Shown here piece by piece: positions 52,785 through 60,563 of a stretch of DNA of 64,000 nucleotides. Below the pieces are notes generated by a model. It had not been told where the DNA came from and did not search any database. It saw only the letters and a list, made by a program, of their open reading frames with translations. The translations under genes were made by a program, and so were the position numbers. Origin of the DNA: a phage; the sequence record OZ413489.1, one strand, 5' to 3'. Each line of letters opens with the position of its first letter. The stretch's first letter is position 1.

Positions 52785-54266
52785 TTACTTAGCGTACTCG
52801 ATTAATTCCACAGTTTTCCCAAAGCTCGGGATATAATTTTTATTATACCCTTCGGTGAGAACCCATAAAGTATCGTACTTTTTCCACTTGTTGTCAACAG
52901 CCTTTTGTTCAAAGTTATGCTCAAAGTATAGGTCGGTCAGGACGATGACATCTTTTGCATTTGGTATGTTGGCATCCAGATACTCGAACACGCAAGCAGC
53001 TGTTGTGCCCCATGTTGAGTGGACCTCATAGTTAATCATCTCATCGATGTTACCGCGAGTGTATACTTTAACCTCTCCAACCTCCGTTGACCAACAGAAC
53101 ATAGTAACCTTAAACTCTTTATACAAATTGCACAACCCGGTGATCTCATTGAACATTTTCTTTAAAGTTCTTTGTGAGATCGACCCAGAAACGTCTAAAG
53201 CCACTACAATATCTATAGTGTTTTCCGGATTACGACCAGGAACAATAACGTGTTGATTCTTGTTTATAGCTCCAACTTTTCGCATTGTGGTGGTCAAAGA
53301 CCCAGATCGGCGACCAGGTTTTCTGTAGGTTAACTCAGCCTTTCTTTTAGATAACATACGTTGCTTAATAATATCTATATAATTGATTACAGGCTTGCCT
53401 CTGTTTTTGACAAACTCGCGCACCGCCTCGGGGCAACGACCTCCTGAAGCTTGCATTGCTGCTTCCAACATGTCACCAGAGTCCTGCATGGCCTGATCTT
53501 TGTCAGATTGACTGATTACTGGTTGCGGCTGATCATACCCCATAGCCTTTCCAAGATCATCACTAGTGCCACCGTTCCCGCTCATGTGATCATCGGTTTG
53601 TCGTTTATCTCCTTGGGAGTTCTCACCTTTACCGTTCTTACTTTTACCGTTATTCTGATCTCTTTGCTTATCAAGAACTGCATAGACGTTCTCAGCAATC
53701 CATCCATGAAACCTCATGTCGCAGTAGCAATTAGCTAAGAAGCCAAAAGGCTTACCTTTTACGAACTCAGTGCTTTTCCCCTTCGGGAAGAAAACACAAG
53801 GAGGCTTACTAAAGTCAACCACAAGACCTGTGTTGATAACGTGATCACAAGCAATATTGAACAGTTCCGGCTCAAAGCTTTTACCACGGACCAGATGATC
53901 ACAGATAATATGCCCCACCTCATGTGACAGAAGAAAGGCCACCTCTTTCACAGATTTTGGGGAATAGAAAACCTCAGCCATCTCAAACTGCTTGTCAGTC
54001 AGAGATGCTTTAAGAATGGTTTTACGCTCATCCGCCAACCCCATAATGAACTCAGGGCTGTAGTAGATGCGTTTATGGTCGGTTGCCATGGTGGAGCACC
54101 ATGTGTGGTTTTCTACGAACTGCAACCCTGACAGTAGTGTGCCATAAAACGGCAGCTTTTCAAGGAGATACATACGTGCAGCCTGCAACATTCTCAGGGC
54201 ATCATCTTTCTGTGAGGCAATGATTTCTGAACTTCTGCTATCCATTAAAACTCCAGAAGGGGCCAT
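52785..54266 (-). CDS. VWA-domain protein with N-terminal HExxH metallopeptidase-like domain (DUF2201-like)
   Basis: 493 aa; LSHEVGHIICDH zinc-binding-like motif; Gly/Asp/Ser-rich linker; C-terminal VWA MIDAS motif IVVALDVSGS. Confidence 0.55.
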   Translation of the reverse strand: MAPSGVLMDSRSSEIIASQKDDALRMLQAARMYLLEKLPFYGTLLSGLQFVENHTWCSTMATDHKRIYYSPEFIMGLADERKTILKASLTDKQFEMAEVFYSPKSVKEVAFLLSHEVGHIICDHLVRGKSFEPELFNIACDHVINTGLVVDFSKPPCVFFPKGKSTEFVKGKPFGFLANCYCDMRFHGWIAENVYAVLDKQRDQNNGKSKNGKGENSQGDKRQTDDHMSGNGGTSDDLGKAMGYDQPQPVISQSDKDQAMQDSGDMLEAAMQASGGRCPEAVREFVKNRGKPVINYIDIIKQRMLSKRKAELTYRKPGRRSGSLTTTMRKVGAINKNQHVIVPGRNPENTIDIVVALDVSGSISQRTLKKMFNEITGLCNLYKEFKVTMFCWSTEVGEVKVYTRGNIDEMINYEVHSTWGTTAACVFEYLDANIPNAKDVIVLTDLYFEHNFEQKAVDNKWKKYDTLWVLTEGYNKNYIPSFGKTVELIEYAK

Positions 54267-54273
54267 TGGCCCC
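54259..54273. promoter_or_regulatory. palindrome GGGGCC-ATT-GGCCCC spanning start codon of 52785-54266 gene
   Basis: Perfect 6-bp inverted repeat; ATG (complement of 54264-54266) and G-rich RBS lie inside the stem. Confidence 0.35.
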
Positions 54274-54278
54274 TGTCA

Positions 54279-55319
54279 TTATTTAACGTGTTTGAAAATA
54301 CCTGCCAACTCGGTCATTGTCATGCGGGTGGTCTTCATAAGATCTGTCATAGCTTTCTCCATAATTGGAGATACTACCATAAAGTTTCCTTTAGTGAAAC
54401 CTTTATTCCAGTCGGTCACCAACAGTGGTTTAAGTCCAGCTCTGAGACGTTCACCAGTTAAAGCACAGCATTTGCGAATATACGAACTCTTAAATTGGCT
54501 GAACGACAGATCAACTTTCATACCTGCATCGTAGAACGTTTGACAATAGAAAGTGTAAGCCTTAGCAATCTCAACATCATCAGGCAGTGCAGGAACCTCT
54601 TCTGCAATCCCCTCTTCGACCTCCTGAGGCTCTTTTTCCTCTTCAGAGTTCTGTTCTTCAACTTCTTCTGTCACAGTCTCGTTCACGATGTCTGAAATGT
54701 GTTTGTTGGCTGCACGATCAGCCATGAAATTTTTAAAGTCCTGCATTGGTGACATATCTTCTTCCTCTTCGTCAAATAGTGCTAGTTTATCTTCTTCTGT
54801 CCCGTATTGCAAGATGAAATCTTCAAAAGTATAATAACCTTTCAATTTCTCCATACGCTCTTCGCTCAGGTGGAGCATCATCTGCTGGACAATTTTTCGA
54901 TCAGTTTTGTCTTTAATCAGGATTGCAGTCTTTTTATCTACCAGACAGTCTTTCAGAGCATTGCACCTCAACCCTACCACACAACAATTGTCAATTGCGT
55001 AAGGACCTTCATCATCTATACGCTCCAAAGATGGGTAGAAAGGATTCCCCAGCCCGTTTTCATCTGTGTGCATGTCAAAAGGTATAAGGGTATAGTCGCA
55101 TACTCCATCTCCTAAAAGTTTTTTACCAAATAGGAGGTATTCTTCCCATGACAGGTCGAACTCTATATCTCGTTTCCGTGCGTTATTCTGTTTGCGTCTA
55201 TATTTTTTGAGCAAGCGCTCTAACTCTTCTGGTGTATAATATTTTTCAAGATTCATGAGTCGTCTCTCGTGCTCTGTAAGTGAAGAAATCGTATCAATTG
55301 TCTCAACAGATGTCAACAT
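54279..55319 (-). CDS. acidic protein with tandem His-Me-finger (HNH-like) zinc-loop modules
   Basis: Track ORF to 55322 (TTG); ATG at 55319 preferred; SLERIDDEGPYAIDNCCVVGLRCNALK resembles the HNH zinc-binding loop, with a degenerate second copy; long Glu/Asp-rich linker. Confidence 0.35.
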   Translation of the reverse strand: MLTSVETIDTISSLTEHERRLMNLEKYYTPEELERLLKKYRRKQNNARKRDIEFDLSWEEYLLFGKKLLGDGVCDYTLIPFDMHTDENGLGNPFYPSLERIDDEGPYAIDNCCVVGLRCNALKDCLVDKKTAILIKDKTDRKIVQQMMLHLSEERMEKLKGYYTFEDFILQYGTEEDKLALFDEEEEDMSPMQDFKNFMADRAANKHISDIVNETVTEEVEEQNSEEEKEPQEVEEGIAEEVPALPDDVEIAKAYTFYCQTFYDAGMKVDLSFSQFKSSYIRKCCALTGERLRAGLKPLLVTDWNKGFTKGNFMVVSPIMEKAMTDLMKTTRMTMTELAGIFKHVK

Positions 55320-55329
55320 CAAAAACGTG

Positions 55330-55358
55330 TTGACTTTACTCTAACTCTACAATATAGT
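55330..55358 (+). promoter_or_regulatory. sigma70-like promoter, TTGACT-17-TATAGT
   Basis: -35 55330-55335, -10 55353-55358; in divergent intergenic region upstream of 55399. Confidence 0.5.
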
Positions 55359-55398
55359 GCACCCATTCGAAAGAAAACTAACATAGGAGCACTTACTT

Positions 55399-56298
55399 AT
55401 GGCAAATCTTAACAGTTTTAGTACGCGGTGGAAACAGGACATAACAACCAATCTTTCAGCTGGGGACATCCTTTCTGCAATTTACGAGGCTTTAGATGAT
55501 AAAGCTACTTCAAAAGCGGTTTGTACCAACCCGCTAATTCCTGTAGTGATGAAGGTTATTGAGCGTAGATTGGTATCTGGGTCTGATAAGTGGACATATT
55601 TAGATAATGAAGGACACACCTATTCCAATGGGTACGTCGATATAAAAGTAGAATACGCGGTATCATACCGCCGGAGCGGTTCTGTAACTTTCAACTTCTC
55701 TGGAGGTTTTCGATCTCTGGCTACCTCACCTTTTGTTTCCTCAGAGGAGAAGTATGAGCTGCCATTTCTTTGGATGATGGCTAACGCGACAGGAAAAACC
55801 CCCGTTAGCATCCGAGTAAAATACAACTACAACGGATCTAGTAAGATCTATGCCGAAAGTGTCTCAGCAAGTTTTTATTTTGTGATGGGGGATGGAATCC
55901 TCAAACATATAAAGATGTGCGATATGCATGATGTTATAAATGAAGTGACTGATAAGAATGTTCTAGTGAAAGACCTCAACAATTTTTATACACCCGGAGA
56001 CTATTACGTCAGCCGTCCACTGTGCATCTTTAATGCCGCACACCCTCTAGGTGAGTATTTGATCGCCAATAGCGATATTGCCAATAACCGCTTCGAGGTA
56101 GCAAGAGTTCAGAATGAGGTATTGACATCTTGCAAGAGCGGTGATAAGTTTACCGAAGAAGAGATGGGTGTTTTAGAAATGATGGGATATAAGTGTAGCC
56201 TTTGGGTAGATGAGGTGTTTAATGATTGCATCTATGGACAGGATATTTACCCATTAAAGAAGTATACTGATACAAGTTTAATTTATGCAAGGGTTTGA
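55399..56298 (+). CDS. hypothetical protein
   Basis: 299 aa; first gene of plus-strand early operon. Confidence 0.4.
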   Translation: MANLNSFSTRWKQDITTNLSAGDILSAIYEALDDKATSKAVCTNPLIPVVMKVIERRLVSGSDKWTYLDNEGHTYSNGYVDIKVEYAVSYRRSGSVTFNFSGGFRSLATSPFVSSEEKYELPFLWMMANATGKTPVSIRVKYNYNGSSKIYAESVSASFYFVMGDGILKHIKMCDMHDVINEVTDKNVLVKDLNNFYTPGDYYVSRPLCIFNAAHPLGEYLIANSDIANNRFEVARVQNEVLTSCKSGDKFTEEEMGVLEMMGYKCSLWVDEVFNDCIYGQDIYPLKKYTDTSLIYARV

Positions 56299-56300
56299 CT

Positions 56301-56573
56301 ATGATGAAGGCATGTGGTAATGTATATTACGTCGGTGAACATGTTCAGGCAGACAGTGTGTGGAAATCTATTAAGTCCACCACTGACGATGCCTTTCTGA
56401 GTGGACTATGTTTCCCCAATCCGGGAGACATCCTCCCTCATCCTGGAGATTTTGTTGTCAACAAGATGGACGGTTATACCGTGTGCCTGATGGTTGAAAA
56501 AATCTTTTTAGACACTAGACACAATCACCGTCTTGTGTTAAAATTTCAAGAATGTAAAATGACAATTGCCTAA
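56301..56573 (+). CDS. hypothetical protein
   Basis: Track ORF 56295 (TTG); ATG 56301 preferred; 90 aa. Confidence 0.3.
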   Translation: MMKACGNVYYVGEHVQADSVWKSIKSTTDDAFLSGLCFPNPGDILPHPGDFVVNKMDGYTVCLMVEKIFLDTRHNHRLVLKFQECKMTIA

Positions 56574-56586
56574 GGAGACCTTACCG

Positions 56587-56943
56587 ATGTCTAAAGTTAC
56601 TTATCGTGCAGCTATTTACTGCAATGAACACCCAATCAACAATGATGGTCACTGCCTTTTTAAAGAAAATCAGTTGGGATGTATTGTCCTCCCTGATGAA
56701 GGGAAAGGTTATCTGATTGCATTGACAGGGTTTGAACCTGAAGCTCTGGAAGCCAATCTGGACTACCTGGTAGAAGAGGGTGCTGCAGACCTGGTTGCCA
56801 ATGGCTTCTCCATAAGCCTTGACGAAGTGGAGCGCTTCATGGGCAATTACCGTGTAGTGCGTGAGTTTACTATCGAGGTGGAAACTCCAGAGTGGGGTAG
56901 CCATGAAACTAATGCCGAAGAAAAAGAAGAGGAGGTAGAATAA
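56587..56943 (+). CDS. hypothetical acidic protein
   Basis: Track ORF 56566 (TTG); ATG 56587 with AAGGAGA RBS preferred; 118 aa. Confidence 0.35.
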   Translation: MSKVTYRAAIYCNEHPINNDGHCLFKENQLGCIVLPDEGKGYLIALTGFEPEALEANLDYLVEEGAADLVANGFSISLDEVERFMGNYRVVREFTIEVETPEWGSHETNAEEKEEEVE

Positions 56944-57200
56944 TGAAAGTGCAGATCTTGACTAATGCCGAGAAGATGTTTATTGAAGATACACCTTTTG
57001 AAGCTGGTGAGCTCCAGTTCATTTATTTTGTTGACTTAGATAAGGTGTTCCCTGCACTGAATCTTGGTCTGGATGAAGTTCCTCATAAGGTTTTGTGCCA
57101 AGTTGTTCGTGCATTAGCGGCAGATGGGGAGTTCCACACCCTTGAAGATGTCCAGACCTACGGGTATCTTGAACTACAACGAGAAGAAGAGGTGGACTGA
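56943..57200 (+). CDS. hypothetical protein
   Basis: 85 aa; TAATG coupling. Confidence 0.3.
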   Translation: MKVQILTNAEKMFIEDTPFEAGELQFIYFVDLDKVFPALNLGLDEVPHKVLCQVVRALAADGEFHTLEDVQTYGYLELQREEEVD

Positions 57201-57202
57201 TA

Positions 57203-57583
57203 ATGGCCCGGTGGAAGACAACAGTTGACCTTCATGATCAGTGGTTAGGACGCATCACTGAAGACGGGAAGCTAGTGGAGTGGGACAATAAGCATGTTAG
57301 CGAGTTGGCAAGTATTGTGGCTGGCAAGTTACGCTCCAAGTTCCCTGAACAACTGGATCCTGATAGTTCAAAGTTCGATCCTGAGTTGGAGGATGTTGTA
57401 TACTACTTCGACACCGTTGATGACTACGACGCGTGGTTTGCAGCACGGGAGCTTTACCCACAAGGCTCTGCTATGCGTCAGATGGAAGAAGATTATCCTC
57501 CGTGTGAGCAATTCAATAGTGCAATGACTTGCCTCTATGATTGGGCAGATAAGAACCTTGTCTGGATTCGGACTGCATTTTAG
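57203..57583 (+). CDS. hypothetical protein
   Basis: 126 aa. Confidence 0.3.
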   Translation: MARWKTTVDLHDQWLGRITEDGKLVEWDNKHVSELASIVAGKLRSKFPEQLDPDSSKFDPELEDVVYYFDTVDDYDAWFAARELYPQGSAMRQMEEDYPPCEQFNSAMTCLYDWADKNLVWIRTAF

Positions 57584-57627
57584 TGGGCAGGAATGGCGGC
57601 AAGGATGCTGCTTAAGGAGTAGTAGAG

Positions 57628-57897
57628 ATGTTATACCAGCAATATGAACTTCGTGCAGAAAAAGAGTTAAATTTTGACAAAGATATTCACAGATATTATT
57701 ATGGGAAAGTTAGAGGGCAAGCAAGAAAGTGTACTCCAACACTCTTTTATGCCAGCAGACGACTAGCGCCAGAAGAGGCAACAGCAGAAAGGGTTGCGTA
57801 CAACTGGAGAGTCACGTATGATATTGACAGATCCGATGTGATATCTGTTTTGGAAAACTTTGAAAACACTTACACACAAGTAGAGGACTTTTACTAA
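57628..57897 (+). CDS. hypothetical protein
   Basis: 89 aa; AAGGAG RBS. Confidence 0.35.
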   Translation: MLYQQYELRAEKELNFDKDIHRYYYGKVRGQARKCTPTLFYASRRLAPEEATAERVAYNWRVTYDIDRSDVISVLENFENTYTQVEDFY

Positions 57898-59081
57898 TGT
57901 CAAGAAACGTATTCGAAAGTGGTCAAATCACTGTCCGTGAGTTGCCAGCTATTATTCAGTTTGCCCAACGTCATAGCCGATCTGTCCTAATTTTGGGACC
58001 AATGGGTGTGGGTAAAAGTCAGGTGATGAAGCAGATCGCTGATAATATGTTCGGTGAGCGAGATGACAACCTTGTTGACGTGCGACTGTCAGATAAAGAT
58101 CCTGCCGACTTATCTGGGCTACCTATCCCTGTAGAGGCGGATGGAACTACACGTACAGTGTTTGCAATTCCAGAATTTTGGCCTGCGGATCCTGACTGGA
58201 GCGGAATTATCTTTCTGGATGAGCTCACTCATGCAGATAACTACCTGCAAAAGGTTGCAATGCAAATTATGCTTGACCACAAGTGCGGTACCTATGCATT
58301 CCCTAAGGGTTCTGTTTTTGTGGCTGCTGGTAACCGTTCTACAGATGGTGCGGTTCTTTCGGCGCTCGAAGCCCCTCTGGCTAACCGTTTTATCATTGTA
58401 GAGGTTACAAGCAATGCAGAGGTGTTTATTGAGGACTACGCATTCCTTAATGGGGTGCACTCCTCTGTAATTGGATATCTGAAAAGAGTTCCATCAGCTA
58501 TCGATAATTATGAGGCCATGGCTGAGATTAATTGTCCATCTTTTGCCACACCGCGATCTTGGGTTGCTGCATCTGATATCTTGCACGATTTTGACAGCGG
58601 TATTATTTCTGACGCTATGGCCCGTGTTCTTCTGCAAGGTGCTATTGGTCACACTGCAGCGGTAGAGATCTGGACATACCACACCAAGAAACGCAATTTA
58701 CCTGAAATCGGTCGGATTATGGCAGGTGGTTGCAAAGAATACGTAGGTCCTAAGCAGCCAGACATTTTGTGGATTCTTGGATCTGAAGGTTGTATCGCTA
58801 TTCGTAATATGATGGAAAATGCAAGTATCTCAGACGAAGATCTTGTCAGCTGCGTGGCAAACTTCCTCGATTTCCTTTGGGAAAACTTCAAGGACGAGAA
58901 CCGAGATTTTGTATTCTCAGTCTTTATGGCGATGATGAAACCTAATGCCTTAGGAAATGCCTTGCTTATCGGCAAAGGGCGTGACAAGATTGTTGCTCAG
59001 CTGATCAAAGCATACCCAAACCTGATGAAGATTGTAAAAGAGTTTGGTGAAGAGTTTAGCGCCATTTTGGCTAAAGCTTAA
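57897..59081 (+). CDS. AAA+ ATPase (MoxR/CobS-like, AAA_5 type)
   Basis: 394 aa; Walker A GPMGVGKS, Walker B IIFLDE, sensor-like AAGN. Confidence 0.6.
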   Translation: MSRNVFESGQITVRELPAIIQFAQRHSRSVLILGPMGVGKSQVMKQIADNMFGERDDNLVDVRLSDKDPADLSGLPIPVEADGTTRTVFAIPEFWPADPDWSGIIFLDELTHADNYLQKVAMQIMLDHKCGTYAFPKGSVFVAAGNRSTDGAVLSALEAPLANRFIIVEVTSNAEVFIEDYAFLNGVHSSVIGYLKRVPSAIDNYEAMAEINCPSFATPRSWVAASDILHDFDSGIISDAMARVLLQGAIGHTAAVEIWTYHTKKRNLPEIGRIMAGGCKEYVGPKQPDILWILGSEGCIAIRNMMENASISDEDLVSCVANFLDFLWENFKDENRDFVFSVFMAMMKPNALGNALLIGKGRDKIVAQLIKAYPNLMKIVKEFGEEFSAILAKA

Positions 59082-59520: not shown

Positions 59521-60021
59521 GTGAAAATTAAGATCTTTGCTATTATTTTGAGCGCATTTTTATCGCTGCCTGTTGTTGCAGCACCAAAACAAAAAGTATA
59601 CCATACTTGCAAGCCATCAGATACTAAGGAAAACATTCTAGCATGCAATATCTACAGGGAAGCTAGAGGGGATGGCACGATGGGTATGCTGGCATCTGGG
59701 TTTGCCACCCTAAACAGGAAATCTCACCCCAAATACCCAGACACCATAAGAAAGATTGTCTACCAACCTAACCAGTTTTCGTGGACAAACCACGGCAAAA
59801 CTTTTAAGGTGACAGAAAAAGATTCATGGGATCACGCTAAAAGTCTTGCAAAGATGCTTCTAAAGGTCTATAATAACAACCATGTTGCATACATGGCTAT
59901 GGACATAACAGGTGGAGCAACACACTACCATACAACCAAAGTACGACCGAAATGGGCAAAAAAGATGCAGAGGACAGCTCAATTCGGGAGTCATATCTAC
60001 TACAAGGAGCGCAATAAATGA
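59521..60021 (+). CDS. secreted cell wall hydrolase (SleB-like)
   Basis: 166 aa; GTG start with GGAG RBS; cleavable signal peptide MKIKIFAIILSAFLSLPVVAAP; CNIYREARGDGTMGMLASGFATLNRK...YQPNQFSWTN matches the SleB/Hydrolase_2 pattern. Confidence 0.5.
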   Translation: MKIKIFAIILSAFLSLPVVAAPKQKVYHTCKPSDTKENILACNIYREARGDGTMGMLASGFATLNRKSHPKYPDTIRKIVYQPNQFSWTNHGKTFKVTEKDSWDHAKSLAKMLLKVYNNNHVAYMAMDITGGATHYHTTKVRPKWAKKMQRTAQFGSHIYYKERNK

Positions 60022-60563
60022 TTGTAAACAGTAATGAAACTAAAGCAGTACTAACCGGAAATATGGAGGTCACCAGGGGCTCAATTTCTCTGAACAAAGA
60101 GACTTTTGGGCTAATCATTAAAGGGATTTACGAAGATAAGGTGCTGGCAAGCTGCCGTGAACCAATCTTCAATGCTGTGGACTCTCATGTTGAGTCTGGA
60201 CGGGGTGATGTACCGATCATCATTCACTCCCCTACAGACCTTGAACCATACTTCTTTGTGCAGGACGTTGGATTGGGTATGTCAGAAGAGATGGTCCGCA
60301 ACACTTTCATGAACCTCGGGGAGTCAACCAAGCGCAACAGCAACGCTCTGGTAGGTAATAAAGGTGTAGGTTCAAAGGCCCCGTTCAGCATGGTTGACCC
60401 TGCAGATGTGGTTAGTGTGCCATACCAACACAATAGCGCCAAGTGCCGTGCATGCCGCTATGAGATTGTGGTAGCTCCGGAAGCACGCAAAGATGGAGAC
60501 CCTATTGAATATGTAGTTGATCGTGACGGTAACACTATCGACATTCTTTACGAGGAGGCGTAA
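60018..60563 (+). CDS. GHKL-type (Bergerat fold) ATPase domain protein
   Basis: 181 aa; N-box EPIFNAVD, G1 box DVGLGM, G2 box GNKGVGSKAPFS. Confidence 0.45.
   Translation: MIVNSNETKAVLTGNMEVTRGSISLNKETFGLIIKGIYEDKVLASCREPIFNAVDSHVESGRGDVPIIIHSPTDLEPYFFVQDVGLGMSEEMVRNTFMNLGESTKRNSNALVGNKGVGSKAPFSMVDPADVVSVPYQHNSAKCRACRYEIVVAPEARKDGDPIEYVVDRDGNTIDILYEEA

Follow-up and report, generated by a model that had tools for sequence, protein, structure and literature searches.

A MoxR-class ATPase and a VWA/zincin-like protein on divergent vequintavirus operons as probable halves of one conserved module

A 6.3-kb region (52785-59081) of a 64,000-nucleotide stretch of phage DNA (sequence record OZ413489.1; the whole stretch is called the window below) encodes an AAA+ ATPase on one strand and, on the other, a protein in which a metallopeptidase-like domain precedes a von Willebrand factor A (VWA) domain. 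More than 100 GenBank records of rV5-like coliphages (Vequintavirus) match the region at 97–99% identity, that of phage JeffSchatz (Bas55) at 99.0% over its full length, and the ATPase does not differ from its counterpart in phage V5/rV5 (100% identity). Both genes already bear descriptive names in public records. The plus-strand gene is listed as 'MoxR ATPase' or 'ATPase', rV5 gp4 having been named 'MoxR – ATPase' in the 2013 rV5 genome paper (PMC3606486), and the minus-strand gene is listed as 'putative metallopeptidase' or 'VWA-like domain-containing protein', with some labels plainly wrong. The pair type has likewise been published, from computation. The present analysis contributes clear evidence that the two separated genes are true partners, that only particular lineages have them separated, and that their position and the promoter motifs indicate expression before the late genes; the last two points, the split around a bidirectional promoter and the timing argument, add only a little to what had been described.

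Both open reading frames (ORFs) lie where a preliminary description of this DNA had placed them, at 52785..54266 on the minus strand (493 aa from the first ATG) and at 57897..59081 on the plus strand (394 aa). The spacing of about 3.6 kb and the divergent orientation that it reported agree with a measured gap of 3,630 bp, and the four motifs that it named, HEVGH, DVSGS, GPMGVGKS and IIFLDE, were all located at their exact coordinates, their key residues being invariant in family alignments of 46–47 members. The features of the region are collected in Table 1.

Table 1. Genes, domains, motifs and predicted regulatory elements of the region (window coordinates)
Feature	Coordinates	Strand	Remarks
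VWA cochaperone fused to N-terminal zincin-like metallopeptidase, rV5 gp12 equivalent	52785..54245	−	486 aa from M8; open frame to 54266 (493 aa)
Putative metallopeptidase domain, residues 95–321 (493-aa numbering)	53304..53984	−	Pfam DUF2201_N
HEVGHIICDH	53895–53924	−	in metallopeptidase domain; HEVGH = residues 115–119 (53910–53924)
ACDHVIN	53832–53852	−	in metallopeptidase domain
VWA-like domain, residues 353–488	52803..53210	−	Pfam DUF2201
DVSGS, residues 358–362	53181–53195	−	MIDAS D358-x-S360-x-S362, with T421 and D445
Divergent MoxR-class AAA+ ATPase, rV5 gp4 equivalent, 394 aa	57897..59081	+	from family profile, fold and homologue domains
Walker A GPMGVGKS, residues 34–41	57996–58019	+	G37, G39, K40, S41 invariant in 46 sequences
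Walker B IIFLDE, residues 104–109	58206–58223	+	D108, E109 invariant in 46 sequences
Sensor-1 AAGNR	58323–58337	+	sensor-1 Asn invariant in 46 sequences
Arg finger LANRF, residues 161–165	58377–58391	+	L161, N163, R164 invariant in 46 sequences
Sensor-2 region ATPRSW	58545–58562	+	sensor-2 Arg invariant in 46 sequences
Divergent intergenic region, 142 bp, with back-to-back σ70-like promoters	55257..55398	.	from consensus scan and sequence
Leftward promoter TTGACA-17-TACGAT	55316–55288	−	predicted; feeds Srd-like gene, then VWA gene
Rightward promoter TTGACT-17-TATAGT	55330–55358	+	predicted; feeds seven genes ending in ATPase gene, continuing beyond
Srd-like anti-sigma factor gene, 325 aa as annotated	54279..55256 (ORF to 55322)	−	PHROG 'decoy of host sigma70', 'Srd anti-sigma factor'
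GC-rich perfect 7-bp palindrome AGGGGCCAATGGCCCCT between Srd-like and VWA genes	54258..54274	.	encloses upstream ATG (54266)

Profile searches, which the preliminary description had suggested as a check, recovered two Pfam domains in the minus-strand protein and the MoxR-type families AAA_3, AAA_5 and bpMoxR in homologues of the ATPase. The two domains are DUF2201_N ('putative metallopeptidase domain'; E=4e-28, 99.2 bits against a gathering cut-off of 23.2) and DUF2201 ('VWA-like domain'; E=3.6e-11, 43.7 bits against a cut-off of 26.4), and they follow one another from N- to C-terminus in the order that the family requires. All 60 listed homologues carry DUF2201_N and 59 of them also DUF2201, the family at large comprising 14,736 clusters at 50% identity (E≤1e-30), in which full-length proteins of 370–450 aa with both domains predominate. 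In an alignment of 47 sequences reaching about 20% identity, H115, E116, H119, H124, A139 and D141 are invariant; the HExxH stretch H115–H119 constitutes a putative zincin-type motif, for which H124 and D141 are candidate further metal ligands. The metal-ion-dependent adhesion site (MIDAS) is complete, D358, S360, S362, G420, T421 and D445 being invariant in the 47 sequences.

An open frame of 493 aa, the length given in the preliminary description, does exist, but the protein probably starts at M8 (ATG at 54245) and measures 486 aa. This start is preferred because a GGAG lies 5 bases upstream of it and the first ATG falls inside a GC-rich hairpin, and because homologues measure 484–487 aa and GenBank annotates 486 aa. 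The palindrome AGGGGCCAATGGCCCCT leaves the GGAG and the ATG at 54245 free, and may have a role in RNA stability or in the choice of translation start.

An AlphaFold model of the VWA protein has a predicted local distance difference test (pLDDT) score of 85.5, with values below 50 at residues 211–235 in a disordered insert rich in Gly, Asn, Lys and Asp (approximately residues 205–250). Fold searches recovered the Rossmann-like α/β fold of VWA domains, with the NorD VWA domain from the NorQ-ring complex at ranks 1 and 2 of the Foldseek PDB matches, and the profile of the protein matched integrin I domains. The alignment with NorD occupies 226–229 columns, extending beyond the bare VWA core (about 150) and beyond the matches to plain VWA domains, which is suggestive only. 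The N-terminal domain gave weak profile matches only, at the HExxH helix, to the small zincins MJ1213, BepA and HtpX, and a single-sequence search of the PDB with the VWA protein returned no match.

These results bear directly on the other names under which the protein circulates, according to which it would be an HNH endonuclease, a 'DNA repair ATPase' or an anti-sigma factor. Such names are used in several GenBank records, and PHROG 1314 is itself labelled 'HNH endonuclease', but the chance that any of them is right is very close to nil. No HNH or nuclease family was detected in Pfam or NCBIfam scans, both DUF2201 domains score above their cut-offs, and the model has a VWA fold beside a putative zincin domain, with invariant HExxH and MIDAS residues; the 'DNA repair ATPase' and 'anti-sigma factor' labels are contradicted by the same domains, motifs and fold, and all three look like propagated misannotation. 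As an observation on annotation in general, PHROG 1314 (DUF2201 zincin–VWA) and PHROG 3118 (Srd-like anti-sigma factor) both carry the 'HNH endonuclease' label, which is now found in many recently annotated phage genomes (N4-like and jumbo) and is backed neither by Pfam nor by fold.

The identity of the ATPase emerged from family alignments and structure prediction. As a single sequence it was matched in Pfam, NCBIfam, PADLOC and PDB searches over the P-loop region only and below family cut-offs, with no AAA_3 match in the Pfam scan. Relatives found at E≈1e-44, which share 31–36% identity across about 85% of the protein, bear AAA_3, AAA_5 and sometimes bpMoxR, and within the family AAA_5 and AAA_3 are recognised in 19 of 46 members at E≤1e-3, and bpMoxR in 6. 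Since the protein itself stays below the cut-offs while its relatives bear these domains, it is assigned to a divergent MoxR subfamily. The best PDB match of the family profile was to the AAA modules of Midasin, a MoxR-related AAA protein which bears a MIDAS, and the AlphaFold model (pLDDT 85.4) placed NorQ and CbbQ2 at Foldseek ranks 1–18 (E=4e-8 to 5e-6; target-normalised TM-score 0.55–0.64), other AAA+ clades appearing at E≥6e-6. NorQ and CbbQ2 are MoxR ATPases that operate with VWA partners. In the model, the Arg finger LANRF directly precedes the strand at residues 165–170 (strand 5), and an Arg finger immediately N-terminal to core strand 5 is characteristic of MoxR (PMC7159879). Predicted secondary structure places a β-hairpin at residues 75–81/84–90, between strand 2 (59–63) and the Walker B strand (102–108), as well as a short two-strand element at about residues 129–134, before the sensor-1 strand; the hairpin of residues 75–90 would fit the helix-2 insert of the MoxR clade. 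Two long antisense ORFs inside the ATPase gene (58119-58460 and 58019-58228, both on the minus strand) have BLASTP matches to antisense ORFs in phages PBES02 and PVP-SE1, a by-product of sense-frame conservation which is no evidence for genes.

The association of the two families has been followed in loci collected from IMG/VR with the ATPase-family alignment, all co-occurrence counts being drawn from limited samples. A DUF2201 gene is present in 70 of the 80 loci with an ATPase relative, and in the other 10 the contig breaks off no more than about 1.1 kb past the ATPase gene. The DUF2201 gene immediately follows the ATPase gene on the same strand in 68 of the 70, with a gap of −58 to +548 bp, although these 68 loci are not independent since most of them belong to one environmental clade; the two exceptions are vequintavirus-like and Seunavirus-like loci. 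A scan of genome contigs added 10 loci, all of them from metagenome bins and probably phage-derived, so that they say little on cellular distribution, and the same downstream order holds in nine. Every sufficiently long ATPase locus sampled, in either collection, also has the VWA gene. Among individual genomes, the genes are adjacent in Certrevirus PBES02, in cyanophage S-TIM5, in a 155-kb phage-like contig and, judging by match coordinates, in N4-like phages and the Agrobacterium jumbo phage Atu_ph07; they lie on one strand 0.9 kb apart in Thermus phage phiFa, and on one strand 2.9 kb apart with a homing endonuclease in between in the Pseudomonas jumbo phage PA5oct. Adjacent pairs also occur on bacterial chromosomes, in three closely related gammaproteobacteria examined. 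The phage ATPase resembles the bacterial ATPase that stands beside a bacterial DUF2201 gene (31% identity, E=7e-37), the two partners thus having a shared descent. The proposal of the preliminary description, that the proteins correspond to the partners in MoxR–VWA systems, is thereby upheld by the Pfam domains, the domains of homologues, the structural matches to NorQ/CbbQ and NorD, and the gene linkage.

In the sequences compared, the separation of the genes onto opposite strands is found only in Vequintavirus, Seunavirus and close relatives, the ATPase and DUF2201 genes sharing a strand elsewhere. Seunavirus PVP-SE1 has the same split as the genome studied here, and Certrevirus PBES02, a member of the same subfamily, keeps the genes adjacent, from which we conclude that the pair split once, in an ancestor of Vequintavirus, Seunavirus and their close relatives. 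An ancestral adjacent pair, with the ATPase gene followed by the VWA gene, would thus have been distributed onto divergent operons leaving one promoter region. Between PVP-SE1 and Vequintavirus both genes are intact at about 45–50% amino-acid identity, and when the neighbourhoods of Vequintavirus and PBES02 are compared, the ATPase and VWA genes are the only ones shared. To judge by this conservation, both halves stayed under selection after the split and form conserved islands in a fast-changing region. A third conserved partner was sought by comparing the 126-aa ORF downstream of the ATPase with the ORF downstream of the PBES02 pair, and no similarity was found.

The separation raises the question of whether the proteins in this lineage have ceased to cooperate and acquired independent roles, as their distance of 3.6 kb, their opposite strands and the unrelated genes between them might suggest. 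Such a divorce is considered very improbable. Both genes were kept intact through the split from Vequintavirus to Seunavirus, all catalytic and MIDAS residues that are independent of the interface are invariant, both genes stand downstream of the same divergent promoter region, and the VWA gene accompanies the ATPase in every sufficiently long locus sampled.

That promoter region lies between the two operons. In the leftward operon the Srd-like gene comes first and the VWA gene second, the Srd-like gene being part of the context rather than a demonstrated component of the system; its assignment agrees with public annotations and with the rV5 paper (PMC3606486). In the rightward operon the ATPase gene is seventh, its start overlapping the stop of the preceding ORF (TAATG), and transcription would run on into a cell-wall hydrolase, rII remnants and a Dda-like helicase. 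The neighbours, called unknown small genes in the preliminary description, fit that label in some cases, but the Srd-like anti-sigma factor, the hydrolase, the rII remnants and the helicase are identifiable. Bidirectional promoters have been reported at this place in the rV5 paper (PMC3606486), and the PVP-SE1 record has a promoter annotated at the same position; from the promoter and terminator scan only this divergent pair has been used, being corroborated by these two annotations. We infer from the sequence that the pair functions as promoters. Because both operons leave one back-to-back promoter region, the separated genes could still be co-expressed before the late genes.

Further indications of timing come from a T4-late-like motif, TGGTAAAATA, which the rV5 authors proposed to lie upstream of late genes (PMC3606486). 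Allowing at most one mismatch, it occurs 20 times in the window against 5.8 expected, a count reached in no shuffle, and 16 of the 20 matches fall on the plus strand of the structural region (1–46.4 kb; 1-46409); the same scan of the window found no match upstream of either the ATPase gene or the VWA gene. The homologous genes of phage N4, gp24 and gp25, are of the middle transcription class and count among the 14 core genes of N4-like phages (PMC4193335), and the virion proteins that the rV5 paper names in its text include neither gp4 nor gp12 (PMC3606486). Taken together, the promoter pair, the absence of TGGTAAAATA upstream of either gene, the N4 middle transcripts and the list of named rV5 virion proteins point to pre-late expression of both genes. 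The term 'early region', applied to them in the preliminary description, is likewise plausible, as the genes flank a back-to-back σ70-like pair and lie outside the stretch rich in late motifs.

The domain identities, the fold similarity, the invariant catalytic and MIDAS residues and the conserved gene linkage are directly supported by these data. On this basis, the two ORFs are fairly likely to represent the halves of one conserved phage and bacterial module, in which a MoxR ATPase and a VWA/zincin cochaperone are proposed to carry out ATP-driven remodelling and cleavage. By analogy with better known systems, we infer physical interaction between the two proteins, hexamer formation and proteolysis, together with the timing of expression and the existence of a specific target. 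A cryo-electron microscopy study of NorQ–NorD has shown that a VWA 'finger' enters the pore of the MoxR hexamer, with a second contact at the post-sensor-1 loop, and that ATP-driven rotation stretches the adaptor and remodels the client, a mode that its authors suggest to be general for AAA+/VWA pairs (PMC13036017). Following NorQ–NorD and CbbQ–CbbO, the phage ATPase would form a hexameric ring on which the VWA domain docks, with its MIDAS binding an acidic residue of one particular client. Hydrolysis of ATP would then twist or stretch the adaptor together with its client, and the fused zincin domain would cleave the client thus exposed. The outcome would be a split, adaptor-targeted, ATP-dependent metalloprotease acting before late morphogenesis.

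The NorQ–NorD and CbbQ–CbbO pairs share with the phage proteins the Walker motifs, an Arg finger before strand 5, a MIDAS-bearing VWA partner and genetic linkage, yet these best structural matches have only 10–22% sequence identity to them. NorD and CbbO are devoid of a peptidase domain and their clients are metalloenzymes encoded nearby (cNOR and Rubisco), whereas the phage pair has an extra C-terminal helical domain on its ATPase and no linked client gene. The likeness nevertheless suggests another reading, in which the pair serves metal insertion or metalloenzyme activation in the manner of NorQD, CbbQO, CoxDE or CobST and the HExxH motif handles a metal ion without peptide cleavage. NorQ and NorD, the solved structures nearest to the phage proteins, are responsible for inserting iron into nitric oxide reductase, metalloenzymes are the clients of many MoxR–VWA pairs, and enzymes of nucleotide metabolism are often neighbours of the pair in phages. 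A metal-insertion chaperone is nonetheless improbable here, as the invariant HExxH with its conserved Glu and the 'putative metallopeptidase' label in Pfam point to catalysis, and no gene for a candidate client metalloenzyme is linked to the pair across the lineages compared. Membership of the ATP-dependent chelatases (CobS/CobT, BchI/BchD) was rejected separately: that class is recognised by a VWA subunit with an N-terminal AAA-like domain and an acidic linker and by a large third subunit that binds the substrate (CobN/BchH), a composition that the phage pair does not have. Two further cellular machines can be likened to the proposed module, with no claim of membership. FtsH, an AAA+ protein fused to an M41 zincin, belongs to another AAA+ clade and another peptidase family and has its components in one chain, and the proteasome lid, which brings together an AAA+ ring, the VWA protein Rpn10 and the metalloprotease Rpn11, is built of other clades and families in another arrangement.

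Among viruses, the same combination was described by Iyer, Anantharaman, Krishnan, Burroughs and Aravind (2021; Viruses 13:63; PMC7824862), who recognised a MoxR ATPase and a vWA protein with an N-terminal metallopeptidase in 'group 2.2' jumbo phages. That description was by computation only, and a role in virion assembly or processing was proposed (PMC7824862). The jumbo-phage pair consists of the same two families with the same domain architecture as the pair considered here, and jumbo phages Atu_ph07 and PA5oct, phAPEC6-like phages and Erwinia phages are direct tblastn matches of both proteins; the genome studied here differs in its size of about 136 kb and in having the genes separated and divergent, those of the jumbo phages being linked on one strand. 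N4 gp24 (AAA ATPase) and gp25 (vWFA), of the Schitoviridae, are also homologous to both proteins (21–28% identity, E=1e-10 to 1e-21) and have been listed as core genes of unknown function (PMC2784036; PMC4193335). The N4-like phages differ in being podoviruses with another genome organisation, adjacent co-directional genes and shorter proteins. Experimental support for a viral MoxR–VWA pair exists only for the p618 (MoxR) and p892 (VWA) proteins of Acidianus two-tailed virus (ATV), which the jumbo-phage paper cites as a chaperone in tail development (PMC7824862). This archaeal virus, whose VWA protein has no peptidase domain, is likened to the present case by description only.

A virion-assembly chaperone and protease, which would fold or assemble structural proteins and process them proteolytically, is thus an alternative with some standing, and it was the analogy with ATV p618/p892 on which the proposal for the homologous jumbo-phage pair was based (PMC7824862). 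Core status in N4-like phages would fit a housekeeping morphogenetic role. In S-TIM5 the pair lies among virion genes, adjoining those for Hsp20 and virion proteins, and the PA5oct ATPase record bears an 'ESI-MS/MS' (electrospray ionisation tandem mass spectrometry) note. This reading is still regarded as rather unlikely. The genes in the present genome are outside the structural module and have no late-promoter motif upstream, N4 gp24/gp25 are of the middle and not the late class, and the usual neighbours elsewhere belong to replication or nucleotide metabolism (exonuclease, ThyA, dUTPase, RNase H); the absence of both proteins from the virion proteins named in the rV5 text tells against it as well. 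In contrast to the jumbo-phage proposal, position and the lack of a late motif here argue for pre-late expression.

Bacterial chromosomal pairs of AAA_5 and DUF2201_N/DUF2201 genes, as in Sulfurivermis fontis, belong to the same families and stand in the same order as those of the phage relatives, with about 22% identity between the bacterial and phage DUF2201 proteins (E=2e-10) as against 31% between the ATPases. They differ in being cellular and in lying beside HtpG, Hsp15, thioredoxin and Lon in a few related genomes. In the gammaproteobacterial examples, HtpG, Hsp15 and thioredoxin are found upstream of the pair and ferrochelatase and Lon downstream, a proteostasis-flavoured neighbourhood which may be coincidence, because the genomes are few and closely related.

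These neighbours hint at clients in proteostasis which a copy carried by a phage might imitate, and they enter into the reading of the module as an effector of host takeover or counter-defence, which would remodel or cleave a host defence, stress or envelope factor. Homologues of the neighbouring phage genes (the Srd-like anti-sigma factor, rIIA/rIIB and the cell-wall hydrolase) act on the host, and cellular MoxR–vWA couples serve in conflict systems (PMC7159879). Counter-defence genes, however, are usually patchy and fast-evolving, whereas this pair belongs to the N4-like core, is nearly invariant in Vequintavirus and is the sole conserved pair in a neighbourhood otherwise replaced with respect to PBES02; no PADLOC model was matched. 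An effector directed at host factors, the anti-host system considered in the preliminary description, is rather unlikely, to about the same degree as the virion-assembly reading.

Among the possible clients of the proposed module, a cytoplasmic complex of the early or middle phase, whether from phage replication or transcription or of host origin, is rated slightly above a virion precursor, an earlier cytoplasmic role being weakly favoured by the gene location and the late-motif evidence. Carried to its full extent, this line of argument leads to a core, pre-late, split metalloprotease acting in trans, which would cut one cytoplasmic client of host origin or from phage replication or transcription and would be no virion-assembly chaperone. 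This specific reading is offered tentatively, as a possibility that may well prove wrong. Its extension to N4-like phages, Vequintavirinae, several jumbo phages, a cyanophage and a Thermus phage is equally speculative.

Several points weigh against the interpretation of the genes as a cooperating, pre-late module. The ATPase scores 16.7 bits with AAA_5 against a cut-off of 22, and is below the gathering cut-off for AAA as well. About 100 C-terminal helical residues of the ATPase are without counterpart in NorQ/CbbQ. Matches to the σ70 consensus in the region number 20 against 17 expected, which is not above chance overall, and co-regulation has had to be assumed because the genes are not adjacent in this genome. 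The mass-spectrometry note on PA5oct and the placing of the S-TIM5 pair, mentioned above, fit an assembly role. In the literature consulted, mainly open papers, no experiment on a DUF2201–MoxR pair from phage or bacterium was found, and papers sought on Vequintavirus, Schitoviridae, PA5oct and CRISPRi-ART offered nothing on the function or expression of the two genes.

Few genes without an assigned function are as well conserved in several large groups of virulent phages as those of the ATPase–DUF2201 module, which hardly varies among the rV5-like phages used for therapy and typing. Identifying its client would fill a real gap, both for phage biology and for the study of MoxR–VWA systems, which are poorly understood. 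Should the pre-late metalloprotease reading be true, it would add a new class of regulated proteases encoded by phages and would give N4 gp24/gp25 a function after decades. Vequintaviruses would provide a convenient test system, since they are grown on E. coli K-12 and a CRISPRi-ART study has made targeted knock-downs (capsid and rII genes) in vequintavirus EdH4.

Some additional observations concern the surrounding sequence and its database records. Sixteen GenBank records of 'Campylobacter phage' (e.g., MG065654 and MG065666; about 135 kb; host given as C. jejuni) have about 97% identity to E. coli vequintaviruses in this region, and their host label appears questionable from the sequences. 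The first gene to the right of the promoter region, at 55399-56298 on the plus strand, encodes a 299-aa protein which is listed in GenBank as 'putative alpha 1-3 fucosyltransferase' and falls into a PHROG of unknown function; the name looks unsupported, as no Pfam, NCBIfam or PADLOC match was obtained. Beyond the ATPase gene, an ORF of 181 aa (60018-60563, plus strand) joins residues 1 to about 126 of rIIA in frame to residues 345–401 of rIIB, the two parts being respectively 98% and 100% identical to JeffSchatz. Relative to that phage about 2.62 kb are gone, comprising most of rIIA and nearly all of rIIB, with the junction at about 60390-60420 in a short motif common to both paralogues (SMVD..DV.SV) and the overlap of the rIIB stop with the helicase start retained. 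The junction was found in one piece in none of 120 vequintavirus records. The fusion resembles the classic r1589 deletion of T4, and it fits the result of the CRISPRi-ART study that rII knock-down in EdH4 is harmless in hosts without Rex.

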